Part shown: positions 23,645 through 29,408 of the stretch, piece after piece
Layout of the letters: the number at the start of each line of letters is the position of its first letter
Numbering within the stretch: position 1 is the first letter of the stretch
From: a virus
Virus record (IMG/VR): IMGVR_UViG_3300008117_004020
Location: 1 to 64,000 of that record
Length of the DNA: 64,000 nt
Reading direction: 5' to 3' (one strand)
Translations under genes and position numbers: made by a program
The notes under the pieces: generated by a model
Database searches by the model: none
Seen by the model: only the letters and a program-made list of their open reading frames with translations
What the model was told of the DNA's origin: nothing

Positions 23645-24664
23645 ATGAGTAACACTTCACCAACAAATTCAGGTTTTCAAGTGCTAATTCCTGAAACAGC
23701 CATCCAAGAAAGGGTGGACAAATTAGTCATGTATAAATTGAGACATGACAAATTACATGGTATTTTAAGCGATGTGATCGCGAAAGAAAGGTCTAAAGTA
23801 GTGGATGACCTAAAAGACAAATGTCTAGAACAAGTTAAAGATGATTTCTTAGGCGTAAAAGAAAGAATCATCAATGCTTATTTGGAGAGCAAAAAGTCTG
23901 AGATTATTCTTAAGGGTGAGGTGTTAGCCACTGTAGAAGATGGCACATCTCATAAAGAACTCCCTAAACTCATCAGTTTTTTGTCTTTATTCAAGCAAGC
24001 AATGATCGTAGGTCCCACAGGTTCAGGTAAATCAACATTGGCAAAACAGGCTGCTAAGAGTCTCAATCTGAGATATGGCAGTTTCTCATGTAATATGGAA
24101 GCAAGCAAATCAGAATTGGTGGGCTTTGCTAACATAAATGGGTATGTTACCAGTCAATTTCTTGATTTTTATGAGAATGGTGGTGTGTTTCTTGTTGACG
24201 AGTATGATGCTATGTCTCCATCTATTGCTGTAGTGTTAAACGCAGCATTTGACAGGACCAATCAACTCAGTGTGTCTAACAGGACAGAGAATCCAATTGC
24301 TAAAAAGCATAAGGATTTCTATTGCATCCTGGCAGGTAACACCTGGGGCTCTGGTTCTGTGGAATATCAGGGTAGAGAGATGCAAGACATGGCGTTCCTT
24401 GATAGATTTAAACTTTGTAGACTGTTCATTGATTATGATGCAAACATTGAGAAAATGATTGCAGGTGATAATTATGCATGGTTTATGAAGATTAGAGAGT
24501 TTGTGGAAAAGAATGTGGATAGTGAGAAGTTCTCTACAAGATCTATTCATGATGCTGCTACACTGTTGTTCAATGGCTTCACAAAGCAAGATGTCATTGA
24601 CATGATAGCGCATCATTGGGACAAGGAATTGAGGAAGAAGATTATTGGTGCCGTGGGTGTTTAA
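23645..24664 (+). CDS. MoxR/CbbQ/CobS-like AAA+ ATPase
   Basis: GPTGSGKS, FLVDEYD, AGNT.G.G, D.AFLDRF. Confidence 0.9.
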   Translation: MSNTSPTNSGFQVLIPETAIQERVDKLVMYKLRHDKLHGILSDVIAKERSKVVDDLKDKCLEQVKDDFLGVKERIINAYLESKKSEIILKGEVLATVEDGTSHKELPKLISFLSLFKQAMIVGPTGSGKSTLAKQAAKSLNLRYGSFSCNMEASKSELVGFANINGYVTSQFLDFYENGGVFLVDEYDAMSPSIAVVLNAAFDRTNQLSVSNRTENPIAKKHKDFYCILAGNTWGSGSVEYQGREMQDMAFLDRFKLCRLFIDYDANIEKMIAGDNYAWFMKIREFVEKNVDSEKFSTRSIHDAATLLFNGFTKQDVIDMIAHHWDKELRKKIIGAVGV

Positions 24665-24724: not shown

Positions 24725-25576
24725 GTGAAAGTTATTGAACAAAAAGAACACAAAGGAGACGTAATTCATTTCATATATGATAGCGTAGGAGATTTCTTTG
24801 AGAACACTGACCCAACTAAAACCTATAACTGTCACTCAGGTAATAAAAGCGATCAAAAAGAAATACTTAATGGAGATAGAGACTGGCGCTTTGGTGAAGA
24901 TAGATCAAGATCTGTGTTTTATGAGAACAGATTTGACCCTATGAATGGTAAAAAGATGTGTGAGAGTGAAGTGAAAAAGGTTCTTTCTAGCAAAGAGTAT
25001 AAAAAACTCATACAACAAGCTCTGACATATAAGAAAAAAATCACATTTGAAGATTTGGGATTTAGACTTAATGTTGCCAGAGCAATTAGTGGGGATGATA
25101 AATACTTTGTTAAGTATAAGAATGCTAAAAGACCTACAGTGAAGATTGCCATCAACATATGTGGCTCTGCTTGTGTAGATGAAGATGCCTTTAGAAAAGT
25201 GGCTATGACTGCTGTACCAACTATTTATGCGTTGGAGTTAGCAGGTATTGCCACTGAGGTGTATTATACAGCATTTGCCACTGGTACACATTCAGATGAC
25301 TTTGAGCACTCATGTACACATGTAAAAATCAAATCAGCGCAACAAAGATTTAATTGGACCACATTTGCTCCAATATTCTGTCTAGGTTCATATCGCGAAA
25401 GTGTTTTTATGTCATGGGTGAGCAGTCAGTATGAAGTGAGCAATGGATTAGGCAGACCTATGAATGAGCGTGATATATCAAATTATGACAATTTTGGTTA
25501 TTCTGCTGTAATAGGACTCAATGCAGTGGGTGCAGTGGATCAAGTACAAGAATTATTCATTAAAATTAAAAACTAA
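24725..25576 (+). CDS. vWA/CobT-like partner of the AAA+ ATPase
   Basis: Adjacent to the AAA gene; G.RLNVARAISG, IAINICGSA (degenerate MIDAS), LELAGI.TEV, GLGRP. Confidence 0.65.
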   Translation: MKVIEQKEHKGDVIHFIYDSVGDFFENTDPTKTYNCHSGNKSDQKEILNGDRDWRFGEDRSRSVFYENRFDPMNGKKMCESEVKKVLSSKEYKKLIQQALTYKKKITFEDLGFRLNVARAISGDDKYFVKYKNAKRPTVKIAINICGSACVDEDAFRKVAMTAVPTIYALELAGIATEVYYTAFATGTHSDDFEHSCTHVKIKSAQQRFNWTTFAPIFCLGSYRESVFMSWVSSQYEVSNGLGRPMNERDISNYDNFGYSAVIGLNAVGAVDQVQELFIKIKN

Positions 25577-26769: not shown

Positions 26770-26777
26770 TATATTTG
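26770..26777 (+). promoter_or_regulatory. Bacteroidota -7 box for the tmRNA
   Basis: TATATTTG ending 10 bp before the tmRNA 5' end. Confidence 0.7.
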
Positions 26778-26787
26778 CACTATACAA

Positions 26788-27256
26788 GGGGGTGACAGGT
26801 ATAGACCTGCATCTAAGAGGTATCATCACATGCAAGAGGTAGCCAATACTCAAAGCAATTGGTTAAAATTAAAGGACAACACTACTGTTGAACTTTCTGA
26901 GTATACCATTGACTCTCTGCTTGCAGAGTTGTCTGGTGCTGAGCTTGAATTAGCTTAGGTCAGAGGAGGAGCTATCCTTTGCAACAGAAAATAGCAAATG
27001 TAAAGACATAGGACCATTCCTGTGACACTGACCATCCAAGACTATATGATGTAAAAAGATAGCAAGTAATAGTTTCCTGGAGTTATACTAATAAACCAGG
27101 TGGTGGAGCTGGTGGCTTCTAAACCACTGGTTAGTTCCCTTACGGTGCAAAAATGTCTAGTTTTTGACACAGAAAACTTGACAAATTAGTACTAAGCATG
27201 TAAGAATGGTGGTATTGCTTGATGTAGACACAGGGGTTCGAATCCCCTCACCTCCT
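26788..27256 (+). ncRNA. ssrA: tmRNA
   Basis: 5' GGGGGTG pairs with 3' CACCTCC (G3:U70); T-arm AGGGG-TTCGAAT-CCCCT; CATG/CATG helix partners; tag frame 26875-26958 DNTTVELSEYTIDSLLAELSGAELELA* after an A-rich resume context. Confidence 0.88.
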
Positions 27257-27297
27257 CAGACTTGTGTAGTTTTAAAGCAAAGGTCTCAGAGGTACAC

Positions 27298-27325
27298 GGT
27301 CCCTATGTCTATGGGGACCTTTTTA
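27298..27325 (+). terminator. Terminator after the tmRNA
   Basis: GGTCCC-TATGTCTATG-GGGACC followed by TTTTT. Confidence 0.75.
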
Positions 27326-27344
27326 TTATTTAAAAAACAAGATT

Positions 27345-27548
27345 ATGTTGCAAAAGATTAAAAACTTATTTAAGAGCACCTGTGAAGATGAATTGAAGCA
27401 ACTTGAGATGAATGTTAAAGAACTAGTAGATGAAGTTGTGAGTTTGAGAGTGAAACTTGAAGAAAAACAAGAGCAGATCAACAAAACAAATTCATACTAT
27501 AAGAAGAAACTCTATAACATGAAACTTAAGCTGAAAGGGGAGAAATAG
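27345..27548 (+). CDS. Coiled-coil hypothetical protein
   Basis: 67 aa. Confidence 0.6.
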   Translation: MLQKIKNLFKSTCEDELKQLEMNVKELVDEVVSLRVKLEEKQEQINKTNSYYKKKLYNMKLKLKGEK

Positions 27549-27636
27549 TATTTATAGCGTTATACTGCAGTATTTTTAACATAACTCATTGATATTTAAT
27601 GAGATATGCTTAAGTTTGAAGTATAACCTATTAATT

Positions 27637-27882
27637 ATGCTATTTAGCTTACCTAATGGCAAAGTTATAGAAATATCAGTGGAACAGTTTTTTGAGATGA
27701 CAGATGAAGATCTGGAGTATTTAATTGGACTAAATTATGGAGAAGCAATTCAAAATCCATTCTTTGGTTCTATAATAGAAACTCCAGATATTTTTGAAAC
27801 ACCTGAAGTCTTTTTGGAACTTGAGATTCCACCCTCTGATGAAATTGATATATCTATAGACTATACGCCAGATGAAGAATAA
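27637..27882 (+). CDS. Acidic hypothetical protein
   Basis: MLFSLPNGKVIEISVE...; start re-called. Confidence 0.65.
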   Translation: MLFSLPNGKVIEISVEQFFEMTDEDLEYLIGLNYGEAIQNPFFGSIIETPDIFETPEVFLELEIPPSDEIDISIDYTPDEE

Positions 27883-28838: not shown

Positions 28839-29107
28839 ACCATATATTCTTACAAAACGGAATTACACAATTAGTGTTAAAAGCAGATACAGAAGTAGAA
28901 AGAATGCTCTTAGATGCTTTATTGAGTCAAGGACCACTTGAAATCACTTATATAAGACAACCAGTTGGTGTTCTTGGTGTATCAGTTAAGGATGGAATAG
29001 TTATTAGAAAATTAAAGACAGATGATACAAGCAAAACAGAAAATGTGTGCAGGGTGCAACCAGATGAAACACATTTGGAAGAGTCAGGGGAAGGAGAAGT
29101 TCTGTAA
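28835..29107 (+). CDS. Hypothetical protein
   Basis: 90 aa. Confidence 0.55.
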   Translation: MNHIFLQNGITQLVLKADTEVERMLLDALLSQGPLEITYIRQPVGVLGVSVKDGIVIRKLKTDDTSKTENVCRVQPDETHLEESGEGEVL

Positions 29108-29408
29108 AGAATGTTGGTATAAGCAAGAACCTCCTAAAAAAATAAAACCAGTTTCACAAAAGATGCGTGGTGTTATGGATGAATACACTAAAAAGCGTAC
29201 AGCATATTTAGCATTACATCCTAATTGTCAAGCAAAACTTGTTGGTTGTACTGGTAAAGCAACAGATGTGCATCATAAGAAAGGAAGAGGGGAAAATCAT
29301 AATAATATGTCTTCATGGATAGCAGTATGCAGAGAATGTCACACATATATAGAACTTAATCCATTGAATGCCAAAGAGTTAGGATTTTCTGAAAATAGAC
29401 TTGATTAA
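29022..29408 (+). CDS. HNH-type nuclease with N-terminal Zn ribbon
   Basis: CAGC..CKEC; C....GC....DVHH..GR...VCRECH. Confidence 0.8.
   Translation: MIQAKQKMCAGCNQMKHIWKSQGKEKFCKECWYKQEPPKKIKPVSQKMRGVMDEYTKKRTAYLALHPNCQAKLVGCTGKATDVHHKKGRGENHNNMSSWIAVCRECHTYIELNPLNAKELGFSENRLD

Follow-up and report, generated by a model that had tools for sequence, protein, structure and literature searches.

The window, a stretch of 64,000 nucleotides comprising positions 1 to 64,000 of the IMG/VR virus record IMGVR_UViG_3300008117_004020, carries a gene for transfer-messenger RNA (tmRNA, the SsrA RNA) at positions 26788-27256. We consider it probable that this gene specifies a functional, host-dependent, phage-encoded tmRNA made in one piece and equipped with a tag peptide specific to the phage. 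Phages have been known to carry tmRNAs, and the present one is a variant on these: its tag is long and conserved and does not end in Ala-Ala (AA), and the discriminator base next to its acceptor stem, position 73 of the tRNA-like domain, is U (U73) in place of the usual A (A73).

A one-piece tmRNA gene in a phage genome

Searching with the Rfam tmRNA model RF00023 returned a match at 26788-27259 on the plus strand, on which all features of the window described here lie. The match spans model positions 1-374 and scores 48.2 bits (E 5.5e-16) in the window as well as in the whole record, against a gathering score of 47. By contrast, ARAGORN reported no tmRNA at the locus in either sequence, even at the relaxed setting -ps80, and made only spurious permuted calls elsewhere, so that of the two programs named for checking the original prediction one found the gene and the other did not. 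The ARAGORN failure is not caused by U73, because the A73-bearing relatives L037, L092 and L130 were missed too. The predicted phage tmRNA of 469 nt is upheld by the match over the whole model and by covariation in its homologues, which score 42-88 bits.

The features of a standard SsrA RNA are present: an acceptor stem with G3:U70, a T-arm, a long helix P2, pseudoknot 1 (PK1) before the resume codon of the tag, a stop codon within helix 5, and additional pseudoknots. The 5' strand of the acceptor stem, GGGGGUG (26788-26794), contains G3, and across 11 homologues its pairs are either kept or compensated; by sequence and by Rfam, the 3' strand, CACCUCC (27249-27255), places U70 at 27253. Helix P2 is formed by 26806-26833 and 27196-27228, the latter with the conserved ACUAAGCAUGUA region; Rfam and RNAalifold agree on it, and 19 of the 20 predicted P2 pairs are standard in the window sequence. 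Pair counts in eight clade members place PK1 at 26836-26863, with three of four pairs in P3 and six of six in P4, and compensatory changes occur in both (GC/CG/UA in P3; CG to UA and AU to GC in P4). All seven pairs of the helix 5 hairpin (26939-26958) form, and the stop codon TAG (26956-26958) lies in its 3' strand. The T-arm (27232-27248), called by both Rfam and RNAalifold, has a 5-bp stem and the loop UUCGAAU, and both sides of each of its two outer stem pairs have changed in 4 of 11 sequences. The gene ends, at the discriminator (27256), without an encoded CCA, since CAG comes after it.

Applied to 11 unique family members, RNAalifold folded P1, P2 and the T-arm, with changes on both sides in 17 of 39 pairs. 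Compensatory changes in the alignment confirm the predicted helices beyond chance. Across 340 ungapped columns the window RNA has four private substitutions, which fall at positions 8 and 17, in the third base of the stop codon and at the discriminator; the other clade members have 0-22, and we therefore see no sign of decay of the gene.

With the neighboring AAA ATPase (23645-24664) as query, we retrieved 23 related viral records. Seven of these whole records have RF00023 matches of 61-88 bits, all of them among the closest by ATPase identity, and the closest relative (88% ATPase identity) scores 42.3 bits over a 516-nt tmRNA. Among the near-complete records of this ATPase-derived sample, two of four have a match. 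Further tmRNAs on viral contigs came from two motif scans, the second of which gave at least 119 stretches. In G010, a related phage record that is 99% complete, a 96-nt piece (L038:1501-1596, minus strand) resembles the T-arm and 3' acceptor strand of a tmRNA with a score of 17 bits; it may be what is left of a gene now lost, or the end of a tmRNA that an insertion has divided.

A long acidic tag conserved as a peptide

The tag frame runs from the resume codon GAC to GCT and the stop codon TAG (26875-26958). Its 27 codons (26875-26955) specify DNTTVELSEYTIDSLLAELSGAELELA, a peptide with seven acidic and no basic residues whose C-terminus is Glu-Leu-Ala (AELELA): the final residue is Ala, with neither AA nor LAA at the end. 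Several observations bear on this frame. It agrees with the one that ARAGORN reads in the nearest relatives it recognizes, fully in L030 (DNTNVELSNYTVESLLAELECSELELA) and in part in L035. U(-5)A(-4) stands before the assigned resume codon in each of the 14 family sequences that we examined (11 of them unique). Pooled over five members with 27 codons, the ratio of non-synonymous to synonymous polymorphism (pN/pS) is 0.43 in the tag frame, and the two alternative frames give 0.92 and 8.8. Finally, one serine of the tag is retained despite a switch between TCT and AGT, with synonymous changes elsewhere. Taken together, these comparisons show the predicted tag to be translated or selected as a peptide.

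The unusual ending is shared. ELELA ends the tags of the window, L092, L035 (identical to L120), L130 and L030, and ELEVA that of L037 (identical to L098), six unique tmRNAs together. Two more tags also have endings other than AA, ELALA in L111 and EAVLA in L148, and tags of equal length ending in ...DEAIAA (L199, ...FIGSDEAIAA) and ...ADEAIAA (L196 and L197) bridge the clade to its AA-ended relatives. Because six unique tags share ELELA or ELEVA and intermediates reach the AA-ended relatives, the ELA-type ending is, on these alignments, a derived and stable clade character rather than a quirk of one genome; the ELELA clade appears to have replaced the ...AIAA or ...ALAA ending of its nearest phage relatives. 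The long acidic 27-residue tag ending in ELA that the original prediction described is borne out by the frame read in relatives, by its pN/pS and by the shared ending. A reading of the tag as an amphipathic helix was rejected: its hydrophobic moment is 0.84, compared with 0.57 +/- 0.29 for shuffled versions, and 17% of the shuffles reach 0.84.

Long tags are characteristic of viral-contig tmRNAs

Relatives of the phage terminase (131 records, 24-26% identity) are found only in phages of Flavobacterium, Bacteroides and Cellulophaga and in uncultured crAss-like phages. Because the terminase matches are confined to these groups, we take the virus to be a distantly crAss-like phage, and Bacteroidota are its presumptive host phylum.

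We compared tag lengths on viral contigs with those in bacteria. The viral sample comprised 91 unique complete tmRNAs among the viral-contig matches listed, and ARAGORN read 58 tags from it. Of these, 39 have 21-31 residues, and most of the 32 tmRNAs that ARAGORN missed have long frames too, as judged by eye. The minority of short tags on viral contigs (for example ANDDNYALAA) may be host ssrA genes at prophage ends. The bacterial controls differ: tags of 8-18 residues occur in all 34 bacterial tmRNAs that carry the T-arm and acceptor of the window gene, and across all 64 controls tags have 8-18 residues and the discriminator is A. Within Bacteroidota we sampled 101 genomes, 97 of which have a match over the cut-off, and read the 30 best-scoring; every one of these 30 has A73 and a tag of 8-10 residues ending in AA. 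Thus the possibility, raised with the original prediction, that the host tmRNA shares these features did not materialize in the presumed host phylum. The window gene is also longer than the genes of this sample (469 nt versus 349-405 nt), and its tag is 27 rather than 8-10 residues in length, ends in ELELA rather than ...AA, and is accompanied by U73 instead of A73. An encoded CCA is likewise missing from 19 of these 30 Bacteroidota genes.

Long tags are characteristic of a large group of viral-contig tmRNAs, of which the window gene is one member. The length of the tag is real and conserved, and it is not special to this gene but usual in the group. The other long-tag tmRNAs, with tags of 21-31 residues (...FDDLMSFVGADYALAA, ...AEGEAILASIFGEVAIAA), have the same RNA core and are mostly AA-ended, with the ELELA and ELEVA tags forming a sub-clade of six unique sequences.

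No bacterial donor of the phage tmRNA can be named. The 34 bacterial tmRNAs sharing T-arm and acceptor with it are spread over many phyla, and their similarity to the phage RNA is confined to the final 26-73 nt. This limited likeness, and the full length of the gene with its own tag, also led us to reject an ssrA remnant at a prophage attachment site, although no search was aimed at an integrase. A pattern for the AA-ended phage tags, run against 185,579 species-representative genomes, gave 55 stretches and no confirmed relative; the pattern covered the N-terminal 10 residues and the ELELA tag itself was not searched, which makes this a weak negative. An alignment of all 11 tag peptides was too variable to serve as a search query.

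A rare U at the discriminator position

The T next to the acceptor stem (CACCTCC-T) is not a sequencing error, because T stands at 27256 in contigs that match without a mismatch in the DNA runs X2 and X4, which belong to separate studies dated 2019 and 2024 and both cover 27188-27500, and in a contig of the RNA library X15 (27188-27335). The base that the original prediction had pointed out is therefore present as read, and A73, one of the features by which a tmRNA is recognized, is absent from the window gene. Within the clade the change is private: A stands in the seven other aligned sequences, among them L092, the tag of which differs at a single residue. Among the 119 viral 3' ends listed, 117 have A and two have T. 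These two, L025 and L143, are 72% identical to each other and have compensated acceptor and T stems, intact long tags and a CCA encoded after the U. Because these intact genes carry it, U73 can occur in a gene that is otherwise maintained; it is rare and recurrent, occurring in at least three distinct phage tmRNAs. With 3 of about 92 unique viral sequences (among the matches listed) and none of the 64 bacterial controls having U73, the numbers are too small to tell whether it is in excess in phages.

G3:U70 is the major determinant for alanyl-tRNA synthetase (AlaRS), and mutation of A73 severely affects recognition of minihelices by this enzyme; bacterial tRNA-Gly and tRNA-Cys carry U73 as their discriminator, and for the D-aminoacyl-tRNA deacylase of bacteria this base is an antideterminant (PMC9976931, in its accessible sections). 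We infer that U73 is a recent and tolerated substitution, which probably lowers alanylation without abolishing it. The variant amounts to a natural experiment on how far a tmRNA tolerates the loss of its A73 alanine determinant.

Transcription signals and RNA libraries

The gene had been credited with a host-type promoter and a terminator of its own, and only the terminator was recovered. It consists of a 9-bp hairpin (27298-27319) and a T run (27298-27329 in all) and begins 41 nt past the mature 3' end. Terminator hairpins also follow the tmRNA in L037, L030, L032 and L035; their loops are similar, GTTTCTAC (GTCTA in the window), and their stems differ. A scan for sigma-70-type promoters found none upstream of 26788. 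The octamer TATATTTG at 26770-26777, 10 nt before the mature 5' end, fits what we take to be the Bacteroidota -7 consensus, TAnnTTTG, and is a weak candidate for such an element; octamers of this kind are not enriched in the window, with 98 matches compared with 81.6 +/- 8.7 expected and 4 of 100 shuffles reaching 98. Co-transcription with the upstream open reading frame is possible, since that frame stops 23 nt before the tmRNA.

Two RNA libraries contain the sequence. When run X10 was compared with a 1-kb stretch around the gene, contigs were found only inside the tmRNA, at 26823-27014 (0 differences) and 26983-27211 (3 differences); these contigs are assembled, and lack of cover of the flanks is not evidence that the flanks are silent. 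In X15, a zero-mismatch contig extends from inside the tmRNA through the terminator to 27335.

A model for the phage tmRNA and its alternatives

In the model that we favor, the tmRNA would be transcribed in the infected cell and trimmed at both ends, at the 5' end by RNase P and at the 3' end by removal of a trailer of about 40-70 nt that reaches up to the terminator. CCA would be added by the CCA-adding enzyme of the host, and host AlaRS would charge the RNA via G3:U70. Host SmpB and EF-Tu would then bring the charged tmRNA to ribosomes stalled on broken mRNAs; SmpB is presumed to come from the host because the phage has no smpB, none having been found in six frames at E<=1. Translation would resume at GAC and append the strongly acidic tag of 27 residues. 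Because the tag has three-fold extra length and has lost the AA terminus, we propose by analogy that it gives rescued polypeptides a fate other than the one conferred by the short AA-ended tags of Bacteroidota. In E. coli, the last three tag residues, LAA, form the critical determinant for ClpX, according to the part of PMC9382460 available.

Several points weigh against this model. The Rfam score is barely above the cut-off and ARAGORN is blind to the gene; no promoter was located; and the RNA evidence consists of assembled contigs, which are blind to ends and levels and may include DNA carry-over. The RNA of the window may be poorly charged. Phages of this family can do without the tmRNA, which is held by two of four near-complete records in the ATPase-derived sample and two of eight in a second sample described below. 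The helical hydrophobic moment of the tag is not above that of shuffles, the sequence analysis itself does not bear on the fate of tagged proteins, and the host is a deduction.

As an alternative, a U73 RNA that is poorly charged or uncharged might act as a decoy that dampens host trans-translation by occupying SmpB of the host and perhaps also EF-Tu or ribosomes. The substitution of a base that is A in 117 of 119 listed viral and all bacterial ends speaks for such a role, as does the impaired AlaRS recognition of A73-mutated minihelices (PMC9976931), and there is a precedent in mycobacteriophage DS6A, which has an element made of the tRNA-like domain only; such molecules inhibit tmRNA (PMC4131195, in the text at hand). 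We nevertheless regard a decoy as unlikely. The mRNA-like domain, PK1, the resume context and the tag have all been kept, private changes are not in excess, and the major alanine determinant G3:U70 is intact. Moreover, sister tmRNAs with 96% identical tags have A73, so that a decoy role, if any, would have arisen very recently and in this one lineage only. A decoy of the DS6A type, reduced to the tRNA-like domain, was rejected given the full mRNA-like domain and pseudoknots of the window gene. The original prediction had also offered an SmpB sponge or a nuclease-resistant substitute as possible roles, and nothing favors either: the full mRNA-like domain and the tag are constrained, the U is private, and sisters with near-identical tags have A.

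We are slightly more skeptical of the view that the window allele is neutral or mildly deleterious and sits in an accessory gene that is dispensable; the change from A to U would then not be adaptive, and the gene would perhaps be nearing loss in this lineage. Such a history would suit the lack of a tmRNA in many related phage genomes of this family that are near-complete, the 96-nt piece resembling a tmRNA 3' end that is all G010 retains, and the privacy of U73 in the clade. However, the same allele occurs with zero mismatches in runs of the two studies five years apart in date (2019 and 2024), no other sign of decay accompanies it, and the sequence is present in RNA libraries. A changed or relaxed amino-acid identity or proofreading, by which another residue is charged or an RNA mischarged with Gly escapes clearance and the first tag residue is altered, can draw on the identity tables and the deacylase statement of PMC9976931, on PMC6097841 (both as far as their accessible text goes) and on the recurrence of U73, but is very improbable given that G3:U70 is kept, that no anticodon supplies the other determinants of the glycyl- and cysteinyl-tRNA synthetases, and that the viral and bacterial frequencies of U73 are not distinguishable.

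Returning to the model of a working, host-dependent tmRNA, we put forward one extension of it tentatively, as a speculation that may well not hold. The phage tmRNAs with tags of 21-31 residues could be a lineage that re-programs host trans-translation, with an acidic segment that is recognized by a partner other than ClpXP (another protease or an adaptor) or is protective. The ELELA clade would have gone furthest by dropping AA, and U73 would add another layer, altering charging or evading proofreading by the deacylase.

Comparison with known tmRNAs

Printed accounts of phage tmRNAs, in the portions accessible, include those of eight mycobacteriophages (the Bxz1 group), that of Bacillus phage G and the DS6A form (PMC4131195), as well as those of huge phages (PMC7162821). 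A survey of 18,146 phage genomes found tmRNA in 402, marine two-piece forms among them, and counted 133 unique structures (PMC9004378). Like these, the DS6A form apart, the window gene is a complete ssrA in a phage of lytic type; it is of the one-piece form and belongs to a distantly crAss-like freshwater phage. In the accessible parts of the literature on phage tmRNA tags, crAss-like tmRNA and discriminator variants, long conserved tags and non-AA endings are not described, and the same holds for discriminator variants in the accounts just cited; Table S1 of PMC9004378 may list tags. The window gene is unlike standard SsrA in having an invariant 36-nt block in the region of pseudoknot 2, and in sitting in a phage genome without smpB.

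A parallel for the tag itself is found in Mollicutes. Their ssrA tags (mf-SsrA of Mesoplasma florum) are recognized by Lon rather than ClpXP and end in NYAFA; like the window tag they far exceed the E. coli tag in length and do not end in LAA, which makes them a precedent for length and ending tracking a switch of protease (PMC9382460, in its available text). The likeness is one of length: the window tag is acidic and ends in AELELA, the NYAFA motif that marks a Lon-directed tag of the Mollicutes type is absent, and a search of the neighborhood revealed no cognate protease or adaptor gene. None of the ten neighboring open reading frames gave a match to a protease or adaptor family.

The printed proposals for why some lytic phages carry a tmRNA, that it keeps hijacked ribosomes running or tags host proteins for recycling, are guesses, as far as the accessible text of PMC9004378 goes. 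A tag three times the length of the host tag, with a peptide sequence that many phage lineages conserve and an AA ending that one clade has lost, suggests that the appended sequence matters to the phage beyond the freeing of ribosomes. Orthogonal degradation tags may come from phage tags, as the Mollicutes tag gave one to synthetic biology (PMC9382460, same portion).

Mosaic structure and an invariant block

The tmRNA of the window is related to different clade members in different parts. In the part with PK1 and the tag (nt 51-171) it shares 94-97% identity with L092, and identity to L098 is 82% and 91% over the tRNA-like ends (nt 1-50 and nt 401-469) and 99% over nt 237-330. This pattern suggests that the tmRNA is a mosaic, produced by recombination among tmRNAs of co-occurring phages. 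Other tag variants occur on loose contig ends in the same public runs.

The 36-nt block (27024-27059) is exact in 11 viral contigs, and all 11 copies lie inside tmRNAs with widely differing tags (ELELA, EAVLA and DEAIAA types), the copy in L200 being placed there by Rfam; several of the other long-tag tmRNAs carry it. The sequence around it has diverged. It overlaps a sigma-70-like site, GTGACA-17-TATGAT, and has no match to an Rfam family or motif. It could be a putative protein-binding site, a target of recombination or homing, or an internal promoter.

The phage genome and neighboring genes

The record is a virus contig of 118,147 bases with 35% G+C and a completeness rating of 98%. Matches to PHROG families identify the portal, terminase and major head protein of a phage, and open reading frames of 1,000-2,800 codons stand in series in it. 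ARAGORN found no tRNA genes in the whole 118-kb record, and a blastn search with the tmRNA locus had no hit among deposited phage genomes. The public runs that hold the locus are labeled lake or freshwater, and some 'fungus metagenome'. A pattern search of viral contigs with the upstream protein of 241 residues returned no relatives.

A small acidic protein encoded downstream (27589-27882, plus strand) was considered as a partner of the tmRNA. It adjoins the tmRNA in all 33 tmRNA-derived loci and is absent from all 14 tmRNA-less relatives. We rejected the link as a sampling artefact because, among the records found via the protein itself (50 of 62 new records examined), only 13 of 50 had a tmRNA match (E<=1e-6), eight of them over the cut-off; among the near-complete records of this sample, two of eight hold a tmRNA. 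The protein is very acidic, with a core of about 84 residues (MLYxLPNGKVIE ... NPFFGS ... IDFxPEEE), and the TTG annotated as its start probably lies upstream of the true one. It belongs to no Pfam or PHROG family, has 144 relatives on viral contigs and is widespread with or without tmRNA.

Two further features of the neighborhood deserve mention. About 1.8 kb downstream of the tmRNA lies a gene for an HNH endonuclease (29022-29408, plus strand; phrog_740, E 1.3e-08), and many relatives have homologues of it close to their tmRNA. Upstream of the tmRNA region, the AAA_5/MoxR-like ATPase (23645-24664, plus strand) and a DUF7192 protein (24725-25576, plus strand) form a conserved pair, and the two genes are useful markers for this phage family.

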